Assembly: GCA_963621995.1 (NCBI GenBank) | Contig: CAVFFZ010000003.1 | Span: forward strand, 12,329 to 76,328 | Direction: 5' to 3' | DNA length: 64,000 nucleotides | Origin: Lachnospiraceae bacterium | GTDB taxonomy: Bacteria > Bacillota > Clostridia > TANB77 > CAG-508 | Shown: one piece after another, positions 528 through 54,105 of the stretch | How the letters are laid out: each line of letters starts with the position of its first letter | How positions within the stretch are numbered: the stretch's first letter is position 1 | Notes under the pieces: model-generated | Told to the model about the DNA's origin: nothing | What the model saw: only the letters and a program-made list of their open reading frames with translations | The model's database searches: none | Program-made: the position numbers and the translations under genes

Positions 528-3020
528 ATGTTTCAAAATATATCAAGGGATTTTGAAGAAAACCAAAATTCCTACGAGGATGTTGAATTAAATAAAAAAG
601 AAAAGATAAAAGAAGCAATAAAAAAATGTATGTCTAAAAAAATGATAATAGTTTATATTGTGTCTTTCTTACTTTCATGTGTTAGCTTTAATGTAAACAA
701 AGAACTAGCACCTTTTGGAATAGCAGTATTAGTGGCAATTTTAAGTAATTGTATTCCAATAGGAATAGCAAGTATATTTGTAATAATAGGAACTAGCATT
801 TGCTTTGGGGGTTCATCAACTTTAAATTTACTATTAACACTGTTTTTAGTATTTGTTAGTATTTTAATAAAATCGCCAAAATATGAAGAAGAAAAAGGAG
901 AAAAGAGAAAACTAGGTTTACGTTTATTTATAAGTTGTTTATTAGTGCAAGTAGTGCCATTATTTTTTAAACAAATAGTAATATACGACTTATTATTTGC
1001 AGTTATTTATAGTATAGCAGCTTTTATATTCTACAAGATATTCTCCAATAGCATAGGTATAATTACAAATGTAGGAGAAAAAATAGCATATTCTATAGAA
1101 GAAGTAATGGGAGCAAGTTTGATGTTAGCCATTTGCATATGTGCAATAGGAACTGTAAATGTATTTGGATTTAGTGTTAGAAATATTTTATGCATCCTAG
1201 TAGTACTAGTAATGGGCTGGAAAAACGGTATTCTAGTAGGGACAACTTCAGGAGTTACTATAGGTAGTGTAGTAGGAATTATTGGAGGAGGAGAACCTAT
1301 AATAATTGCTACATATGCACTTTCAGGAATGATAGCAGGAATATTTAATCATTTAGGAAAAATAGGAGTAATAATAGGCTTTATATTGGGAAATGTACTT
1401 CTTACATATGTTTCAAATGGAAATACATATTCTATAATAGCTTTTAAAGAAATATTAATTGCTTCATTAGGATTGCTTGCAGTACCTAAAAACGTAAAAA
1501 TAGATATAGAAGATTTATATGGAAAAGTAAAATTGTTGCCAGACGGTGCAGATAGAATTTTAGAGGAAAACAAAGATACAATTTACAAATTAAATAGTAT
1601 GTCTGAAACAATATATGAAATGTCAAAAACATATAAAGAAGCAGCAGCCACAATAGTAGATGAAGAAGAACTTAAAAAACAAGAAGAAAATAATTTAAGT
1701 ATTTTTGAAAGAGAGCTAGAAAACAATTTAGAAGGTTTAGAAGAAAATATATTATTTGATGATATATATTCACCAGAAGATAATTTAATAGAAGATATAT
1801 TTAATTTATTATTAGATAATGAAAGAATTAACAGAAGAGATTTGCTAGATGTTTTAGCTGCACATAATAATTATATAATAGGATATGAAAAAGATTATAT
1901 AAGTGATGATGTAGAAAAGGACATAGAGCAAATGGTAAAAATAATTAACTATTCATATAAAGTTAGTAAATTGAATTTTATATGGAAGAAAAAATTAGAC
2001 GAAAATAAAAAAGCAGTATCTAGTCAATTAGAAGAAGTTTCAAAAGCAATAGGAAATTTAGCAGATCAAATAGATGCTAAAGAGAATGATCCATTTGCAA
2101 AACAAAAAGAAGAAATTAAATTATTATTAAAAGAAAAAGATATAGAAATTCAAAATATAAATTATAAAAAGGAACCATCAGGAAGAATAAAGGTTACATT
2201 ATACACACCTTCTTGCAAAAATGTGGAAAACGCAACCTGCGATATAAAGAAGATGGCAAGAATTATATCTAAAGTTTGTGAAGAAAACATGATTTTACAA
2301 AAACAAGAATGTGCATTAAGAAAGAAAGTTCCAAATTGTATGTATACATTCATATCTGAAGATAAGCAACAAATTAGAATAGGAATAGCAAAAACAACAA
2401 AAGCAGATTCAACTATGTCAGGAGATACAAGTATACAAACCAAATTGGAAGACGGAAAATATTTATTGGCAATTAGTGACGGAATGGGTTCTGGAAATGA
2501 AGCAAGAAAAGCAAGCAAAACAGCAATAGCTATGCTAGATAGACTTCTTACATCAGGATTTGATAGAAATTCATCTTTAAGAATGATAAATTCAACATTA
2601 AATGCTATAGGTCAAGAAGATATGTATGCTACATTAGATATAGCAATTTTAGACTTATATGCAAGAAATTTAGAATTTATAAAAAACGGAGCATGCCCTA
2701 CATACGTTAAAAATAGAAGAAATGTAGAAGTACTAAAATCAGTAAGTCTACCAACTGGAATATTGAATGACATAGATTTAGTAGTATATGACAAAGATTT
2801 ACAAGATGGAGACATTTTAGTAATGTGCAGTGACGGAATATTAGAGTCATCTGAAGAATACACAAATAAAGAATTATGGTTAAAATTTTTGTTAGAAGAA
2901 ATAGAAACAGAAGATGTGCAAAAAATTGCAGACATAATTTTACAAGAAGCAATAGACAACAACTACGGAAAACCAAAGGATGATATGACAGTTATAGTAG
3001 CTAGAGTAAAGAATAAATAA
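528..3020 (+). CDS. spoIIE: Stage II sporulation protein E (polytopic membrane domain plus C-terminal PP2C phosphatase)
   Basis: 830 aa with roughly 10 N-terminal hydrophobic helices, a central charged region, and a C-terminal PP2C-type domain with ISDGMGSG and MCSDG motifs. SD GAGGTGG lies upstream. Confidence 0.9.
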   Translation: MFQNISRDFEENQNSYEDVELNKKEKIKEAIKKCMSKKMIIVYIVSFLLSCVSFNVNKELAPFGIAVLVAILSNCIPIGIASIFVIIGTSICFGGSSTLNLLLTLFLVFVSILIKSPKYEEEKGEKRKLGLRLFISCLLVQVVPLFFKQIVIYDLLFAVIYSIAAFIFYKIFSNSIGIITNVGEKIAYSIEEVMGASLMLAICICAIGTVNVFGFSVRNILCILVVLVMGWKNGILVGTTSGVTIGSVVGIIGGGEPIIIATYALSGMIAGIFNHLGKIGVIIGFILGNVLLTYVSNGNTYSIIAFKEILIASLGLLAVPKNVKIDIEDLYGKVKLLPDGADRILEENKDTIYKLNSMSETIYEMSKTYKEAAATIVDEEELKKQEENNLSIFERELENNLEGLEENILFDDIYSPEDNLIEDIFNLLLDNERINRRDLLDVLAAHNNYIIGYEKDYISDDVEKDIEQMVKIINYSYKVSKLNFIWKKKLDENKKAVSSQLEEVSKAIGNLADQIDAKENDPFAKQKEEIKLLLKEKDIEIQNINYKKEPSGRIKVTLYTPSCKNVENATCDIKKMARIISKVCEENMILQKQECALRKKVPNCMYTFISEDKQQIRIGIAKTTKADSTMSGDTSIQTKLEDGKYLLAISDGMGSGNEARKASKTAIAMLDRLLTSGFDRNSSLRMINSTLNAIGQEDMYATLDIAILDLYARNLEFIKNGACPTYVKNRRNVEVLKSVSLPTGILNDIDLVVYDKDLQDGDILVMCSDGILESSEEYTNKELWLKFLLEEIETEDVQKIADIILQEAIDNNYGKPKDDMTVIVARVKNK

Positions 3021-47738: not shown

Positions 47739-50700
47739 ATGATAGTAAATCCAGAAATATTAAAAGAACTACAAACTTCTGCAGGAAATGAAAGAAAAGA
47801 AAAAGCAGAAAAATATGTAGATAATAAAAAAGTAAAAATAACAAAAGTAATTTATGAAGATAAAAACAATTTTGAAATTCACTCTAAAGTAAGGGGTACA
47901 GAAATTTATGATGTTCATATAAAAGTAGAAAAAGGCGAAATAGAAGACGTAAGTTGTGATTGTCCAGACTATTACGAACACTATGGAACATGTAAGCATA
48001 TTTTAGCAACAGCTATAGAATTTAGTAACAACGAAAATTATATAAGAATATTTTCTGGAGATATAGAACAAAAACAAACAGATATGCAAATGTATAACAA
48101 ATACCAAAAAAGAGAAGAAAAATATCGTGAATTTAAACAATTAATAAATAATTTTTATCCAACTCATGAAGAAACAAACGAGAAAAATAAAACAAAAATT
48201 ATGCCACATAGCATAAAAATAGAACCAAAACTAATTTACAATTCATATTTAAAAACATTAAAAATGGAAGTGAAAATTGGAGAAAAACAATTTTATAAAA
48301 TAAAAAATCTAGTGGAATTCTATGACAGAATGCAAAAAAAAGAATTCTATCGTTATGGAACAAAACTTGAATTTGTACACGAAGAAGAAGCATTTGATAA
48401 AGACTCAATACCTCTATTGCAATACATTTTAAAGTATGCAGAAATAATAAAATACACAAACGAAGCAACAAACCAATACACATACTATGGAAGAACAATG
48501 GAAGATAGCTATATAACTATTTCTAATACAGGTATGGACGAATTATTTGAAGTATTAGAGGGAAAAGAAGCTATACTTCAAAAAGAGAATATAGAAAAGA
48601 AAATATTATTCTTAAAACAAACACCAGAAATAAAATTTAAAATAAAAGAAGAGAATGGAAAAGAATATGTATTAGTCCCTAACATAGATGTTTATGAATA
48701 TGACGTAATTGAAGGTAGAAAAGCTATATATTTCTTTATGCAAAACATCTTATATAAATGTGATGATAGTTTCAAAGAAACATTAAAATTACTTCAAACA
48801 TTTAGAAACAGTTTTACAAACCATATAGTATTTCCAAAAGAAGAAATTTCAAAACTATTTTCAATAGTATTTCCAAAAGTAAGAGATAAAATAGAAGTAA
48901 GTAGCTTAAATGAAGATGAAATAAAAAAATATATACCAAAAGAGCTTTTCGTAAAAGTATATTTAGACTATAATGAGCAAAATTTCATTACAGCAGATAT
49001 AAGGTTTATATATGAAGACAAAGAATTCAATCCACTATTAGAGCAAGAGATGGACTTGGCAAGAGATATAGCAAAAGAAGATGAAGTGTTAGAAATACTT
49101 AAGAATTCTGGTTTCATGTTGGAAGTTGAAAAAGCAAGATTAATTTTAGCTAACGAAAACTTAATCTATAATTTCTTATCTTCAGATATTGAAACATATA
49201 TGAAGAAATTTGAAGTTTTAGCAACAGACAATTTTAAGAAAAAAGAAATAAAAGAACCTAAAATTGGAAGCTTAGGAGTAAGAATAGAAAACAATTTATT
49301 AAGTGTAGATTTCTCGAACTTAGACTTTGAACCATCAGAATTAAAAGAAATAATGCAAAAATACCACTTAAAGAAAAAATATCATAGATTAAAAGATGGA
49401 AGTTTTATAACATTAGAAAAAAACGAAACAATAGAACTTTTAGACAGTATGACAAATGGGTTAGATATAAACTTTAAAGAACTAGAAAAAGGTGAAGTTA
49501 AACTTCCTATATATAGAAGTTTATATTTAGACAGAATGTTAGACAATATAAAGGGTACAGTAATTACTAAAAATGAAAATTACAAAGAGTTAGTAAACAA
49601 AGTTGAAAATAAAGAACTAAATGAAGAAATAAACTTACCTAAAAATTTAAATGCATCTTTAAGAAGTTATCAAAAAGTAGGATACAAATGGTTAAAAGTA
49701 TTAAATAGCTATGGATTTGGAGGAATATTAGCAGACGATATGGGACTTGGAAAAACCATTCAATTATTGGCAGTAATTTTAGATTACGTACAAAATGAAA
49801 AAAATTCAAAGCCAAGTATTGTTATATGTCCAAGCTCACTTTCACTAAACTGGCAAAATGAAATAAAAAAATTCACACCAGATTTAACATCACTTGTAAT
49901 ACATGGAAATGCAGATGAAAGAAAAAAACAACTAAAAAGTATACCAAAGTATAATATAGTAATTACATCATATGATTTATTAAAAAGAGATATAGAAACA
50001 TATAAAGAACTAAATTATGAATTCAAATTTATAATTGCAGATGAAGCACAATATATTAAAAACAACAATACACAAAATGCAAAAGCTATAAAACAGATAA
50101 ATGCAAACACAAAATATGCTTTAACAGGAACTCCAATAGAAAACTCTTTATCAGAGTTATGGTCTATATTTGACTTTATAATGCCAGGATATTTATTTGG
50201 CTATAGAAAATTTAAAGAATTATATGAAATGCCAATAGTAAAAGATGAAGATAACACCACTATGAGAAAACTAAAAATGATTATAGAGCCATTTATATTA
50301 AGAAGAATAAAAGGAGAAGTTTTGACAGAACTACCAGATAAAACAATAACAGTACTTAATAATGAAATGGAAGAAGAACAGCAAAAAATATATATGTCTT
50401 ATATGCAAAATGCTAGAAGTGAAATGATGCAAGAAATAAATGCTAATGGGTTTGAAAAAAGCCAAATAAAAATACTAGCACTATTAATGAGGCTAAGACA
50501 AATATGCTGCCACCCAGCTTTATTCTTAAGTGACTATAAATCAGAAAGCAGTAAACTTAACCAATGTATAGAAGTAATAAAAGATGCAGTAGATTCAGGC
50601 CACAAGATCTTACTATTTTCTAGTTATACAGGAATGTTCCCTATGATAGAAGAAAAACTTAAAAAAGAAAAAATAGGATATTCTAAACTAACTGGACAAA

Positions 50701-51059
50701 CAAAAGTTGGTGAAAGAATTAAACTTGTAGACGAATTCAATGAAGATGAAAATAAAAAGGTATTTTTAATTTCATTAAAAGCAGGAGGAACAGGACTGAA
50801 CTTAATAGGAGCAGACATGGTAATTCACTATGATCCATGGTGGAATATATCAGCAGAAAATCAGGCAACAGATAGAACATATAGAATAGGACAAAAGAAA
50901 AATGTTCAGGTGTATAAGTTAATTACAAAAAACTCTATAGAAGAAAAAATTTATGAACTACAAGAAAGAAAATCAAAACTTATAGATAATGTATTATCTA
51001 CAAATGAAACATTTTTAAACAAACTTTCTAAAGAAGAAATAATGGAATTGTTTAAATAA
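47739..51059 (+). CDS. SNF2-family helicase with N-terminal SWIM zinc finger
   Basis: SWIM motif CDCPDYYEHYGTCKHILA. Helicase motifs DDMGLGKT, DEAQYIKN, LTGTPIEN and TDRTYRIGQKK. Confidence 0.85.
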   Translation: MIVNPEILKELQTSAGNERKEKAEKYVDNKKVKITKVIYEDKNNFEIHSKVRGTEIYDVHIKVEKGEIEDVSCDCPDYYEHYGTCKHILATAIEFSNNENYIRIFSGDIEQKQTDMQMYNKYQKREEKYREFKQLINNFYPTHEETNEKNKTKIMPHSIKIEPKLIYNSYLKTLKMEVKIGEKQFYKIKNLVEFYDRMQKKEFYRYGTKLEFVHEEEAFDKDSIPLLQYILKYAEIIKYTNEATNQYTYYGRTMEDSYITISNTGMDELFEVLEGKEAILQKENIEKKILFLKQTPEIKFKIKEENGKEYVLVPNIDVYEYDVIEGRKAIYFFMQNILYKCDDSFKETLKLLQTFRNSFTNHIVFPKEEISKLFSIVFPKVRDKIEVSSLNEDEIKKYIPKELFVKVYLDYNEQNFITADIRFIYEDKEFNPLLEQEMDLARDIAKEDEVLEILKNSGFMLEVEKARLILANENLIYNFLSSDIETYMKKFEVLATDNFKKKEIKEPKIGSLGVRIENNLLSVDFSNLDFEPSELKEIMQKYHLKKKYHRLKDGSFITLEKNETIELLDSMTNGLDINFKELEKGEVKLPIYRSLYLDRMLDNIKGTVITKNENYKELVNKVENKELNEEINLPKNLNASLRSYQKVGYKWLKVLNSYGFGGILADDMGLGKTIQLLAVILDYVQNEKNSKPSIVICPSSLSLNWQNEIKKFTPDLTSLVIHGNADERKKQLKSIPKYNIVITSYDLLKRDIETYKELNYEFKFIIADEAQYIKNNNTQNAKAIKQINANTKYALTGTPIENSLSELWSIFDFIMPGYLFGYRKFKELYEMPIVKDEDNTTMRKLKMIIEPFILRRIKGEVLTELPDKTITVLNNEMEEEQQKIYMSYMQNARSEMMQEINANGFEKSQIKILALLMRLRQICCHPALFLSDYKSESSKLNQCIEVIKDAVDSGHKILLFSSYTGMFPMIEEKLKKEKIGYSKLTGQTKVGERIKLVDEFNEDENKKVFLISLKAGGTGLNLIGADMVIHYDPWWNISAENQATDRTYRIGQKKNVQVYKLITKNSIEEKIYELQERKSKLIDNVLSTNETFLNKLSKEEIMELFK

Positions 51060-51082
51060 AATGGTAATTATTGTAAAAGCAC

Positions 51083-51111
51083 TTGACAATATAAAAGCAA
51101 TATAGTATTAT
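51083..51111 (+). promoter_or_regulatory. Promoter of the candidate antitoxin small RNA
   Basis: TTGACA-17 nt-TATTAT, about 45 nt upstream of a terminator. Confidence 0.5.
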
Positions 51112-51117
51112 TATTTT

Positions 51118-51186
51118 AGAAATAGCATTAAGTGATTATTTATAAAACCAATAAAAAACTCGCGAGTTCCGTTCGCGAGTTTTTTA
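51118..51186 (+). ncRNA. Candidate ~70-nt antisense (antitoxin-like) RNA
   Basis: Bounded by the 51083-51111 promoter and the 51153-51185 terminator. Nucleotides 51124-51150 match + strand 51245-51271 at 24/27 positions, so the RNA is complementary to the start region of the minus-strand peptide mRNA. Confidence 0.4.
51153..51185. terminator. Bidirectional intrinsic terminator shared by the convergent transcripts
   Basis: A6-ACTCGCGA-GTTCCGT-TCGCGAGT-T6. Confidence 0.85.
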
Positions 51187-51198
51187 TGTACATATTTA

Positions 51199-51264
51199 TT
51201 ATTTAAATAATAAAAGAATTAAATAAATAATTATAAGTACAATAAGCATTAAGTGCTTGTTCAT
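51199..51264 (-). CDS. 21-aa hydrophobic peptide MNKHLMLIVLIIIYLILLLFK (type I toxin-like)
   Basis: Internal ATG of the 62-aa ORF-track model. It is preceded by AAGGAGGTGG with a 7-nt spacer. The stop lies 13 nt before the terminator stem. Confidence 0.45.
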   Translation of the reverse strand: MNKHLMLIVLIIIYLILLLFK

Positions 51265-51312
51265 AAAACCACCTCCTTTTAAAGAATACTCTCTACTAAA
51301 GAGGCAGAAAAA

Positions 51313-51341
51313 ATTATATAATACAATTAACATAAAGTAAA
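51313..51341 (-). promoter_or_regulatory. Candidate promoter of the peptide mRNA
   Basis: On the minus strand, TTTACT-17 nt-TATAAT. Confidence 0.35.
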
Positions 51342-51387
51342 GAAAAATCGTAAGACAAAAAACGACATAAAATTGAAAAATGAACAA

Positions 51388-51416
51388 TTGAAAACAATAA
51401 GTAAGTGTGATATTAT
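51388..51416 (+). promoter_or_regulatory. Candidate trmFO promoter
   Basis: TTGAAA-17 nt-TATTAT with an extended TGa. Confidence 0.55.
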
Positions 51417-51447
51417 ATGAATATTAAATAGAGTTAGGAGAAATTAA

Positions 51448-52851
51448 ATGAAAGATTATATAACAATAATAGGTGGAGGTTTAGCAGGAACTGAAGCGGC
51501 ATACCAAATAGCAAGAGCAGGAATAAAGGTAAAACTATATGAAATGAAACCAGAAGAATTTTCTAAAGCACATTCAAATGAAAACTTAGCAGAAATAGTA
51601 TGCAGTAATTCATTTAAATCAAACTTACATACAAACGCATGTGGTCTATTAAAAGAAGAATTAAGAATGTTAGATAGTTTGCTTATAAAAGTAGCAGATG
51701 AAACAGCAGTTCCAGCAGGACAAGCATTGGCAGTAGATAGAGAAAAGTTTTCTGAAAAAGTAACAAAATTTTTAGAAAACATGGGAAATATAGAAATAAT
51801 AAGAAAAGAAGTAACATCTTTAGAAAAAATAATAAATGATGGGATAGTAATAATAGCAACAGGGCCACTTACATCAAATAAATTAGCAAAAGAAATAAAG
51901 AAACTAACAGGAGAAAAAGAACTTGCATTTTATGATGCAGCAGCACCTATAATAGAAAAAGATAGTATAAATTTTGACATAGCTTTTTATGGAAATAGAT
52001 ATGATGAAGAACGAGGCAAAGACGAAGATGTAGGAGAGTGGAAGAAAAGAATAGAAAACCAAGAACAAAGCTATATAAATCTTCCTATGAACAAAGAAGA
52101 ATATGAAAACTTTGTAAATGAACTAGTAAATGCAGAAATAGTTGAATTACATGAATTTGAAAAAAGAGAAATATTTGAAGGCTGTATGCCAATAGAAGTT
52201 ATGGCAAAAAGAGGACTAGACACATTAAGATTTGGACCATTAAAGCCAGTAGGATTTACAGATTTAAGAACAGCAAGAAGGCCATATGCAGTGGTACAAT
52301 TAAGACAAGATAATGACGAAGGAACAATGTATAATATAGTAGGGTTCCAAACAAATTTAAAATTTGGAGAACAAAAAAGAGTATTTTCTTTAATTCCTGG
52401 GCTAGAAAGTGCGGAATTTATGAAATATGGAGTAATGCATAGAAACACATTTATAAATTCACCTAAACTATTAGACAATACATATAAAATGAAAGAACAT
52501 TCAAATATATATTTTGCAGGGCAAATAACAGGAGTAGAAGGATATGTTGAATCAATTTCATCTGGAATGGTAGCTTCTTTAAATGCAATACAAAATTTTA
52601 ACAAAACAAATAAAAAAATAATATTTCCAAAAGATACAATGATAGGGGCATTAAGTAATTATATATCAACAGATAATGCAAATTTTCAACCTATGAATGC
52701 GAACTTTGGAATAGTACCTTCTTTAGAAGAAAAAATAAAAGACAAAAAAATAAAATATGGAAGACTTGCAGATAAAGCAATAGAGAGCTTAAAACATACA
52801 TGTAAAAATATAGTTGCACTGCATTTAAATATATGTTATAATAATAAATAG
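51448..52851 (+). CDS. trmFO: Methylenetetrahydrofolate--tRNA-(uracil54-C5)-methyltransferase
   Basis: IIGGGLAGTEAA FAD fold, CSNSFKS, and GQITGVEGYVES. Confidence 0.92.
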   Translation: MKDYITIIGGGLAGTEAAYQIARAGIKVKLYEMKPEEFSKAHSNENLAEIVCSNSFKSNLHTNACGLLKEELRMLDSLLIKVADETAVPAGQALAVDREKFSEKVTKFLENMGNIEIIRKEVTSLEKIINDGIVIIATGPLTSNKLAKEIKKLTGEKELAFYDAAAPIIEKDSINFDIAFYGNRYDEERGKDEDVGEWKKRIENQEQSYINLPMNKEEYENFVNELVNAEIVELHEFEKREIFEGCMPIEVMAKRGLDTLRFGPLKPVGFTDLRTARRPYAVVQLRQDNDEGTMYNIVGFQTNLKFGEQKRVFSLIPGLESAEFMKYGVMHRNTFINSPKLLDNTYKMKEHSNIYFAGQITGVEGYVESISSGMVASLNAIQNFNKTNKKIIFPKDTMIGALSNYISTDNANFQPMNANFGIVPSLEEKIKDKKIKYGRLADKAIESLKHTCKNIVALHLNICYNNK

Positions 52852-52881
52852 GTGAAATCTTTTTGGAAGGAGAAAGATATA

Positions 52882-54105
52882 ATGAGAGAAAAATATATAA
52901 AAATTTATGGAGAATTAAAAAGTGGAGAAAAAGATAAGAGACTAGAAGAATTAAAAAACAAAATAAATGAAAAAACAGCAACACAACAAGAATATAAAGA
53001 AGCAAAAAGAATTGAAAAAGCAAAAGAAAATTTAGAAAAAGTAGAATCTGTTATGAAATTACAAAGAAAGGTAAATGCTGAAATATTAAAAGTAGAAGGA
53101 ACAATAAATAGAATAAATACAAACAATAAATTTTCAGAACAACTTGATAAAACTTTAATAGACTTAGAAGAAGAATTAAAGAAAATTGAAGACGAAAGAA
53201 GAAGAAACCAAGAAGAACTAAAAACTGCAACAGAAGAAAATAAAGCTACTTTAACTGCAAAAATAGAAGAAGCAAACAGGGAAATTGAAGAAAACAACTT
53301 TAAATATCAAAAAGCAGTGCAAAGTAAATTAAATATAGAAAACACTAAAAATGTAGAATTAGGCCAATATGGTAAAATGACTATAGAAGAGCTAAATGAA
53401 AAACAAAATGACTTAAAAAATAAATCTGCAAGATGCGATCTTGTAATAGTTAATTTATTAAAAGGTAGAAACTTAGACGACATAAGTGTACAATTAGATA
53501 ATTATCAAAATAGAACATTTAAATGTGATGAAAAATTATCTAATAGAAGAAAAACTATAAAGAAAGACAAGGTTAAAGACACTGAGCTAGAAATGTCAGA
53601 TGAAAAGTTGGCTGAAATTGAGAAAGGTTTAGAAAGAGAAACTAGAAAAATAGAAAATGAAGTTAGAAAAGAAACAGCATTAACAACAGAGTCAGAATTT
53701 GCCAAGAAACATCCAAGATTAGCTAAAATAGGAAATTGGTTTAAAAATATATTTAGCAAAAAAGCAAAGAGTGAACAAGCAGTAGAAAATGTTCAAGAAA
53801 AAGAAACAAAAATAGAAAGAAGAACAAAGGGAGAAAAAGAAACAAGAGTAGAAAAAGATGCTAACAAAGATAAAGTTATAGAAGATATAATAAACTCTAA
53901 TGAAAATGACTTTAAGAAATATTTGAAAGATATTACAAAAAATGGATATGACAAAACTATAGAAGAAAAAGCTATGGAAAATATTGTGAGAAGACAAGAA
54001 AAATTAAAACAAGCTAAAGAACAAGCATATGATAGAGAAGTAGCAAAATTAGGAAAAGATTATGCAGAAAAATCATATCATAAAGACGAAGAATTAGAAA
54101 AGTAA
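52882..54105 (+). CDS. Highly charged K/E-rich predicted coiled-coil protein, function unknown
   Basis: About 407 aa with uninterrupted heptad-like K/E/N composition, no TM helix and no recognisable catalytic motif. ATG 52882 follows GGAAGGAG. Confidence 0.5.
   Translation: MREKYIKIYGELKSGEKDKRLEELKNKINEKTATQQEYKEAKRIEKAKENLEKVESVMKLQRKVNAEILKVEGTINRINTNNKFSEQLDKTLIDLEEELKKIEDERRRNQEELKTATEENKATLTAKIEEANREIEENNFKYQKAVQSKLNIENTKNVELGQYGKMTIEELNEKQNDLKNKSARCDLVIVNLLKGRNLDDISVQLDNYQNRTFKCDEKLSNRRKTIKKDKVKDTELEMSDEKLAEIEKGLERETRKIENEVRKETALTTESEFAKKHPRLAKIGNWFKNIFSKKAKSEQAVENVQEKETKIERRTKGEKETRVEKDANKDKVIEDIINSNENDFKKYLKDITKNGYDKTIEEKAMENIVRRQEKLKQAKEQAYDREVAKLGKDYAEKSYHKDEELEK

Follow-up and report, generated by a model that had tools for sequence, protein, structure and literature searches.

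A 372-bp cassette at the junction of an SNF2-family helicase gene and trmFO, in a 64-kb stretch of contig CAVFFZ010000003.1 from an uncultured gut Clostridia bacterium (assembly GCA_963621995.1; this whole stretch, G+C 29%, is the window below), is probably a type I toxin-antitoxin-like module, wired in the manner of the Enterococcus par locus. A minus-strand mRNA would encode a hydrophobic peptide of 21 amino acids (aa), and a short convergent plus-strand RNA would pair with its translation start; the elements at 51083-51341 all fall within the cassette (Table 1; region 50700-51700 was read directly). The par-like loci have been defined by convergent promoters, a bidirectional terminator, direct repeats through which the start codon is occluded, and intramolecular sequestration involving the Shine-Dalgarno (SD) sequence and the mRNA 5' end (PMC7472228). 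The RNA wiring of the cassette corresponds to this definition in all four features at the level of sequence. A preliminary description of the same DNA had proposed a par/Fst-like type I candidate. Each element that it listed was found at the coordinates given and far exceeds chance expectation; the comparative sequence data support the circuit, and the peptide carries no Fst/Ldr signature. The chances are about even that the cassette represents the founding member of a new ultra-short (21-aa) family of Gram-positive type I toxins, an Ibs-like tail-less peptide under a complete par-type RNA circuit. The natural home of such a candidate family would be uncultured gut Clostridia with small genomes, one of whose phages would carry it as well. 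We regard the locus as a clean, well-supported candidate rather than a surprise.

Predicted convergent promoters and a shared terminator

The two best-ranked promoter-like sites in a consensus scan of the region were TTGACA-17-TATTAT on the plus strand and TTTACT-17-TATAAT on the minus strand, the convergent pair that the preliminary description had named. These candidate promoters are par-like in arrangement and are kept in the homologous cassettes described below: the minus-strand TATAAT was found in all lineages (the -35 box of locus L007 is TTGATA; L numbers designate the loci compared). Between the two promoters stands an intrinsic terminator, A6-ACTCGCGA-GTTCCGT-TCGCGAGT-T6, with 15-nucleotide (nt) perfectly complementary arms (51151-51165 and 51173-51187). 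Because the arms take in both the A-run and the T-run, it should act in both directions. It was the only terminator-like site in the region (1 found vs 0.1 expected from shuffles), in agreement with the earlier proposal of one terminator for both transcripts. Across eight sequences, 9/13 pairs of its stem were changed on both sides, with 99% of cells paired. The ends of the small RNA, placed from the -10 box and the T-run, give 68 nt, close to the ~70 nt claimed before. The two predicted RNAs thus share a factor-independent terminator of the par type with complementary hairpins, which give ~33 nt of perfect antisense overlap between them.

The SNF2 stop codon is at 51059 and the first terminator downstream of it is the one at 51151-51187, so that every SNF2 transcript must carry repeat copy 1. 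The antisense sequence might accordingly exist only as the 3' untranslated region (UTR) of the SNF2 mRNA, with no independent small RNA and with peptide synthesis tied to SNF2 transcription. We consider this improbable, since TTGACA-17-TAnnAT is found between the SNF2 stop and the repeat in 5/5 chromosomal lineages, with TTGACA and the spacing kept while the spacer sequence and the surrounding bases diverge. SNF2 read-through and a dedicated promoter are, in any case, not mutually exclusive as sources of the antisense RNA.

Covariation of the antisense pairing

The small-RNA tail and the start region of the peptide mRNA derive from two copies of a direct repeat. The copies matched at 24/27 positions, as had been claimed, and the repeat is longer than claimed (34 nt at 82% identity in its extended form). 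They were the sole two matches in the window, and none occurred in 100 shuffles. The repeat lies over the putative toxin start as par-type repeats do, here as a single block whose duplex spans -7 to +24 relative to the AUG, and one of the three differences between the copies yields a G-U pair at the G of AUG, also as previously noted. The predicted small RNA had a minimum free energy (MFE) of -18.2 kcal/mol (z = -4.8), and in its MFE structure the tail was unpaired in the 3' part, AUAAAACCAAU; the target of the tail, UGGUUUUAUGAAC, was likewise unpaired in the MFE structure of the mRNA.

RNAduplex was used to pair the 5' tail of each small RNA with the initial 80 nt of the cognate mRNA and of the mRNAs of the other lineages. 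Cognate duplexes of the chromosomal lineages reached -28.2 (window), -28.6, -27.2, -21.2, -20.1 and -29.2 kcal/mol, and non-cognate duplexes mostly -7 to -17 kcal/mol, with exceptions between close relatives (L007 tail with L009 mRNA, L056 tail with L083 mRNA). The z-score was -6.7 for the window and ranged from -3.7 to -7.4 over the chromosomal lineages, and none of 500 dinucleotide shuffles of a tail paired as strongly. In every case the duplex covered the SD-AUG spacer, the start codon and the first 6-10 codons. From these energies the model predicts no cross-protection between the small RNAs of the window and of L007.

The paired sequences themselves differ between lineages. At least 14 mRNA positions from -6 to +20 form different Watson-Crick pairs depending on the lineage, position +13 being U:A, G:C or C:G. 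In a formal count on a MAFFT alignment of tail and start region, with the window pairing imposed, 11/27 pairs of the intermolecular duplex were changed on both sides and 80% of cells were paired. This count was reached by 0/500 shuffles, and slid registers gave 1-4. The repeat copies were 79-89% identical within one genome and 52-72% between most lineages; complementarity is preserved because the two copies co-vary. Energies, cognate specificity and covariation therefore agree in silico on the antisense pairing expected of a type I system.

The pairing check suggested in the preliminary description came out in part when the two full RNAs were folded together. RNAcofold returned only a 33-bp terminator-terminator duplex (ddG -22.8 kcal/mol), and the helix between tail and start region was missing from its output. 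The two helices together form a crossed topology, as in par, which the cofold algorithm cannot represent; the tail was therefore run separately in RNAduplex, where its pairing was recovered.

These data also bear on the view that nothing here is functional, the parts being an SNF2 terminator, a chance open reading frame (ORF) in an AT-rich spacer and a decaying tandem duplication, or that the ORF is the leader peptide of an attenuator. AT-rich spacers do yield promoter-like hexamers (8 found in the region vs 4.9 expected), and Rfam leader families matched the terminator weakly. Rfam searches of the locus (E<=10), the whole window and four homologous loci gave nothing at gathering score, and the sub-threshold matches, for example Leu_leader and STnc420, were terminator-driven noise. 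We hold this view to be very improbable: ORF length, SD, anti-SD, promoters and terminator are kept at ~74% DNA identity with compensatory changes, the repeat copies co-vary, and the comparative data already contradict it. An attenuator was rejected for lack of a downstream gene, the minus strand beyond the terminator holding only the tail of the convergent SNF2 gene.

Predicted sequestration of the SD in the peptide mRNA

The predicted peptide mRNA folded with an MFE of -44 kcal/mol (z = -6.8), with the SD inside a 5' helix and the terminator at the 3' end. In the MFE structure the 5' helix is formed by GCCUCUUU at the predicted mRNA 5' end with AAAGGAGG and encloses a small inner hairpin. 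It was kept in 8/8 sequences, with 90% of cells paired in the consensus fold, and most changes in the helix are on one side only, since the SD does not vary. The covariation of the whole consensus structure was matched by 0/500 shuffles, and slid registers were ~45-54% paired. The predicted structure thus contains the 5' sequestration of the SD that is known from par toxin mRNAs.

A conserved 21-codon ORF without an Fst/Ldr signature

Direct reading confirmed the hydrophobic minus-strand ORF with a strong SD and 7-nt spacer that had been reported: AAAGGAGGTGG lies just upstream, its GGAGG 7 nt from the ATG. No other short hydrophobic ORF in the 64-kb window is preceded by GGAGG, and GGAGGTG was kept in 7/8 sequences (TGAGGTG in L006). 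All lineages have exactly 21 codons, the same stop site and zero indels, and indels do occur in the SD-to-start spacer and in the non-coding flanks. The ORF finder gave a 62-aa in-frame extension in the window. We take the 21-codon reading to be right because this extension is not conserved: in all other lineages a stop codon closes the frame 2-16 codons before the ATG. Among the lineages found through TrmFO, which were not chosen on the ORF, variable sites were distributed 11/4/11 over the three codon positions. This is the pattern expected if NTN hydrophobic codons are preserved, and it indicates coding-type constraint on the ORF.

The predicted peptides are MNKHLMLIVLIIIYLILLLFK in the window, MNNHLMLIVLVIIYLILLLFK in L002, MNKFVMLFVLIVIYLILKLFK in L006 and L007, MNKLLMFLVLIIVYLILKLFK in L009, MKSFFMCAVLIVIYLILKLFK in L083, MNKFIMFAVLIVIYLILRLFQ in L081 and (I)KSFFMMIALLIIYLILKLFQ in L056, with nine invariant columns (M1, M6, L10, Y14, L15, I16, L17, L19 and F20). 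The window peptide has 16 consecutive hydrophobic residues (L5-F20), as expected of a small (<60 aa) hydrophobic transmembrane (TM) peptide, and is charged only at K3 and K21. The exact peptide strings were not found in the searchable literature.

Fst/Ldr toxins share a hydrophobic TM helix, a conserved Trp, a highly charged C-terminus and a P/D/S/TxxxG(C) motif in the TM segment (PMC7472228). Trp is absent from 7/7 peptides, which end in LFK or LFQ with charges at most at K/R18 and K21; none contains the P/D/S/TxxxG motif, nor any Pro, Asp or Gly. Because both the TM motif and the Trp/charged-tail signature are missing, we did not file the peptide under Fst/Ldr, and no toxin model matched it. 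This outcome accords with the earlier suggestion that a peptide shorter than Fst and without its charged tail may represent a new family.

Distribution of the cassette

Species-representative genomes were scanned with TrmFO. The 80 loci obtained all belong to uncultured gut Clostridia of ~1.5 Mb genome size; in ~60/80, SNF2 lies directly upstream of trmFO with a gap of 15 nt to 1.9 kb. A metagenome search with a pattern from the 3' half of the ORF gave eight further matches, two of which (L085, L088) were rejected as chance AT-rich matches with no cassette. Homologous cassettes were found in six diverged lineages, five at the SNF2-trmFO junction and one on a phage contig. Most of them retain the strong SD, the 5' anti-SD hairpin, both promoters and the bidirectional terminator.

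Of the six species nearest by TrmFO (92-95% identical), three have the cassette (the window, L002 and L003) and three lack it (L001, L004 and L005); in the latter, trmFO starts about 13 nt after the SNF2 stop codon. The cassettes of L002, L003 and the metagenomic L086 and L089, both of the window type, are 97-98% identical to that of the window. At greater distance it occupies the same junction in L006, L007 and L009 (TrmFO 81% identical, ~74% DNA identity) and in L056 (TrmFO 74% identical; nhmmer E = 2e-14), and L083 and L087, from marmot and shrew gut metagenomes, likewise have it between SNF2 and trmFO. The preliminary description had asked whether the repeat and the ORF are lost from relatives that retain the flanking genes; both are retained where TrmFO is only 74-81% identical, and the repeat copies co-vary. 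Most other genomes with SNF2-trmFO synteny in the 80-locus scan lack the cassette.

The absences from L001, L004 and L005 are clean 372-bp indels, and the empty site holds a single copy of the edge motif (~2975-2990). Either an insertion resembling target-site duplication or a deletion between short repeats could have produced them; the presence of the cassette at this site in more distant relatives makes deletion seem the likelier of the two. Clean absence in three sister species agrees with a dispensable addiction-type module and is no argument against the type I reading. Absence from 3/6 congeneric species and one phage-borne copy together give the patchy, mobile-element-associated distribution of such modules.

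The phage copy, L081, is on an IMG/VR contig with terminase and G39P-type replication genes, and L082 and L084 from the metagenome search match it. Its homology to the chromosomal cassettes is limited to the terminator, the ORF, the 5' UTR and the toxin promoter. A degenerate back-translated pattern run on viral contigs recovered L081 again and nothing else. Blastn of the cassette against plasmids and phages gave nothing or AT-rich noise in Campylobacter phages, and tblastn of the peptides against phage and plasmid collections gave no match, with the low-complexity filter possibly masking the peptides.

The same distribution bears on whether the circuit might be real and the peptide non-toxic, a conserved small membrane protein with a specific partner (e.g. 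a transporter or respiratory complex that it modulates) held under tight antisense control. The invariant M6, L10, Y14-L15-I16-L17, L19 and F20 exceed what generic hydrophobicity needs, and the constant junction in lineages whose TrmFO identity falls to 74% suggests that the cassette is inherited vertically. Specific targets have, moreover, been reported for some very short type I toxins, such as the FoF1 ATPase for IbsA (bioRxiv 10.1101/2025.05.26.656083). Still, the cassette is missing from half of the congeneric species and from most other SNF2-trmFO genomes, a homologue is found in a phage, and SD sequestration, start occlusion and a stronger antisense promoter make up the layout of genes that are to be kept off. 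We therefore consider a non-toxic peptide unlikely, although clearly the strongest competitor of a type I module.

Several other small elements were seen at these loci. The junction looks like a hotspot for small insertions because the spacer spans 15 nt to ~1.9 kb in ~60 syntenic species, of which only the lineages named above have the peptide cassette. L008 has a different insert there (2757-2860), a perfect inverted repeat of 36 nt that encloses a loop of 32 nt (AGAAAGATTTGGGACGTGTCTAAAAATTTCCAAACA ...); it contains no peptide ORF and could represent a miniature mobile element or else a very long hairpin. In L006, L007 and L009 a gene for an additional small, highly charged Glu/Lys-rich protein (MGSWMEKFERKEDEKRERELNEILEEAIEEYDDYN...) lies between the cassette and trmFO (e.g. 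L007 ~2663-2998); its frame in L006 has TAA where L007 has CAA. On the phage contig L081, a second SD-preceded ORF follows the terminator of the 21-aa gene (2231-2368, plus strand in the orientation of the locus) and encodes a 45-aa hydrophobic Cys-rich peptide (MSTFILFLICTHIILEFLTIVNTFCLIYYTFCCICNCFCFILCSN), with an antisense-repeat-like segment between the two genes.

Predicted operation of the module and points against it

In the proposed mechanism, the weaker of the two promoters would produce the minus-strand ~154-nt mRNA for a 21-residue, single-helix hydrophobic peptide. The 5' end of the mRNA, GCCUCUUU, would fold onto the SD, so that the fresh transcript would be poorly translated. 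The near-consensus convergent promoter would supply the 68-nt RNA, which would contact the mRNA at two places, through its terminator hairpin and through its 5' tail, the latter paired from position -7 relative to the AUG as far as codon 8. Docking could occur via the terminator loops or via the open AUAAAACCA/UGGUUUUAU segments and would be followed by occlusion of the start codon, which would block ribosome loading; the duplex may also be a target of double-strand RNases. When the small RNA falls, the peptide would be made, insert into the membrane and arrest growth. We infer from the sequence that both promoters fire and that the antisense promoter is the stronger; the relative stabilities of the RNAs, as well as membrane insertion, toxicity and neutralisation, belong to the model in the same way.

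Several points weigh against a type I toxin-antitoxin module. The transcript ends of both RNAs are guesses from consensus boxes. Gene conversion could in principle mimic the concerted change of the repeat copies; for a 27-nt repeat with a conserved promoter before copy 1, selection for pairing is the simpler reading. In the C-terminal half of the ORF hardly any site varies, synonymous ones included; this could reflect constraint at the RNA level as well as on the peptide, and the C-terminal conservation in L081-L089 is partly ascertainment, these loci having been found by a pattern from the 3' half of the ORF. Two chromosomal copies depart at the translation start. L056 has ATT in place of ATG (~2330) with all 21 codons kept and a small-RNA repeat matching at 23/27, and L006 has the SD ATGAGG instead of AGGAGG (G-to-T, ~2493) together with a C-to-T change in the anti-SD; either could be an attenuated or decaying toxin gene. 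The phage-borne copy has a poor antisense promoter and only ~11 nt of complementarity. The size of 21 aa stands at the extreme low end, and profile searches with the peptides, to which 21 residues lend little scoring power, gave 0 Pfam families at E<=1 and nothing relevant in NCBIfam at E<=10.

The locus and its neighbouring genes

The features of the locus are collected in Table 1. Both neighbours are as first identified, an SNF2 helicase and TrmFO. The cassette is bordered by a 10-nt motif, TTAAATARAR, whose left and right copies are 8/10 identical in the window. Where the cassette is present, its terminator stands between SNF2 and trmFO; relatives that lack it have these genes 15-20 nt apart, a spacing that looks like co-transcription. 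Two small plus-strand ORFs (51132-51206 and 51257-51340) had no SD and were set aside as genes. The exact same locus occurs in the public metagenome-assembled genome (MAG) GCA_963660865.1 (L090; CAVKZG010000001.1, 2113-2500), whose annotation shows no gene in the SNF2-trmFO interval and hence neither the peptide gene nor the two RNAs. Directly downstream of trmFO, a gene at 52852-54105 (plus strand) encodes an extremely Lys/Glu-rich protein of ~410 aa with a coiled-coil-like look, for which the gene table of the public record gives no Pfam family.

Table 1. Positions in the window of the cassette features and the flanking genes
Feature	Position	Strand	Remarks
SNF2-family helicase gene	47739-51059	+	flanks the cassette on the left; stop at 51059
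Left cassette edge, TTAAATAAAA	51052-51061	+	overlaps the SNF2 stop codon; repeated at 51424-51433
Candidate small-RNA promoter, TTGACA-17-TATTAT	51083-51111	+	consensus score 11/12, best in region
Repeat copy 1 (extended 51117-51150)	51124-51150	+	targeting segment of the small RNA; complements the mRNA from the SD-AUG spacer to codon 8
Predicted antitoxin-like small RNA, ~68 nt	51118-51185	+	35-nt 5' tail, then terminator hairpin
Bidirectional intrinsic terminator	51151-51187	.	common to both predicted transcripts
Predicted peptide mRNA, ~154 nt	51153-51306	-	ends placed from the -10 box and the terminator
21-codon ORF plus stop, putative membrane toxin MNKHLMLIVLIIIYLILLLFK	51199-51264	-	codon count constant across lineages
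Repeat copy 2 (extended 51238-51271)	51245-51271	+	minus strand is the translation start region of the peptide mRNA
SD region, AAAGGAGGTG	51270-51279	-	read directly
Anti-SD, GCCUCUUU	51298-51305	-	predicted mRNA 5' end; pairs with AAAGGAGG in a 5' stem-loop
Candidate peptide-mRNA promoter, TTTACT-17-TATAAT	51313-51341	-	consensus score 10/12
Promoter-like TTGAAA-17-TATTAT with upstream TG	51388-51416	+	right arm, faces trmFO; 10/12
Right cassette edge, TTAAATAGAG	51424-51433	+	second copy of the edge motif
TrmFO gene	51448-52851	+	flanks the cassette on the right

Implications

If the new-family reading is true, the par scaffold is not restricted to Fst-type toxins and can control a peptide unrelated to them. 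Should the peptide prove toxic, we know of no shorter type I toxin from Gram-positives, and the par-type control circuit would be separable from the Fst toxin fold. Type I toxin genes are too short for gene callers; repeat-plus-terminator geometry, taken together with covariation between the copies of the repeat, can reveal modules of this kind in MAGs even where protein homology is lacking. The 372-bp locus is a compact test case that already has covariation support, and the six natural variants of the RNA-RNA interface offer a ready set of orthogonal antisense pairs.

Comparison with known systems

Type I modules of Clostridioides difficile (CD2517.1-RCd8, CD0956.2-RCd10 and related) resemble the cassette in being from Clostridia, in their convergent layout and in their occurrence on the chromosome and in prophages (PMC6563280). 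Their toxins are 34-59 aa long with a lysine-rich tail, and the antisense overlap is long and continuous (PMC6563280), in contrast to the 21 aa, the absence of a Lys-rich tail and the dispersed complementarity here.

In peptide character the closest likeness is to Ibs/Sib of Escherichia coli and Salmonella, whose peptides of 18-19 aa are almost purely hydrophobic and have no positive C-terminal tail. IbsC, with 19 aa and no cationic tail, is a proven type I toxin and is still toxic when cut to 15 aa (PMC8309996). The RNA arrangement differs: the Sib antisense lies opposite the whole ORF, whereas 13 nt separate the end of the predicted small RNA here from the stop codon, and its overlap is confined to the terminator. 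Ibs/Sib is, furthermore, known from Gram-negatives only, and we found neither an Rfam Sib match nor sequence similarity.

According to T1TAdb, only Fst/RNAII and SprA1/SprA1as combine a 3' overlap with an interaction outside it (PMC8594479). SprA1/SprA1AS of Staphylococcus aureus shares with the cassette an overlap at the 3' ends only and a non-overlapping 5' domain of the antisense RNA that pairs with the start region, in SprA1AS with repression of translation as the result; its peptide, PepA1, is of 30 aa, belongs to the Fst family and has no sequence similarity to the 21-aa peptide.

The par locus of Enterococcus faecalis pAD1 differs from the cassette in the size of its peptide (about 27-35 aa vs 21 aa), in its separate DRa and DRb repeats (vs one continuous 27-34-nt repeat here) and in an mRNA of ~230 nt (vs ~154 nt). 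The terminator loop of the window, ACGGAAC, contains no YUNR U-turn, which among eight sequences was found only in L006, L007 and L009 (3/8); this motif is not present in every par homologue (PMC7472228). In its predicted wiring the cassette is otherwise like par: the promoters converge on a shared bidirectional terminator with complementary hairpins, direct repeats transcribed in opposite directions let the small RNA pair with the start region outside the overlap, the toxin mRNA sequesters its SD in a 5' stem-loop, and the ORF is not overlapped by the antisense RNA. Like the par-like loci as a group, it is present in both chromosomal and phage-borne copies.

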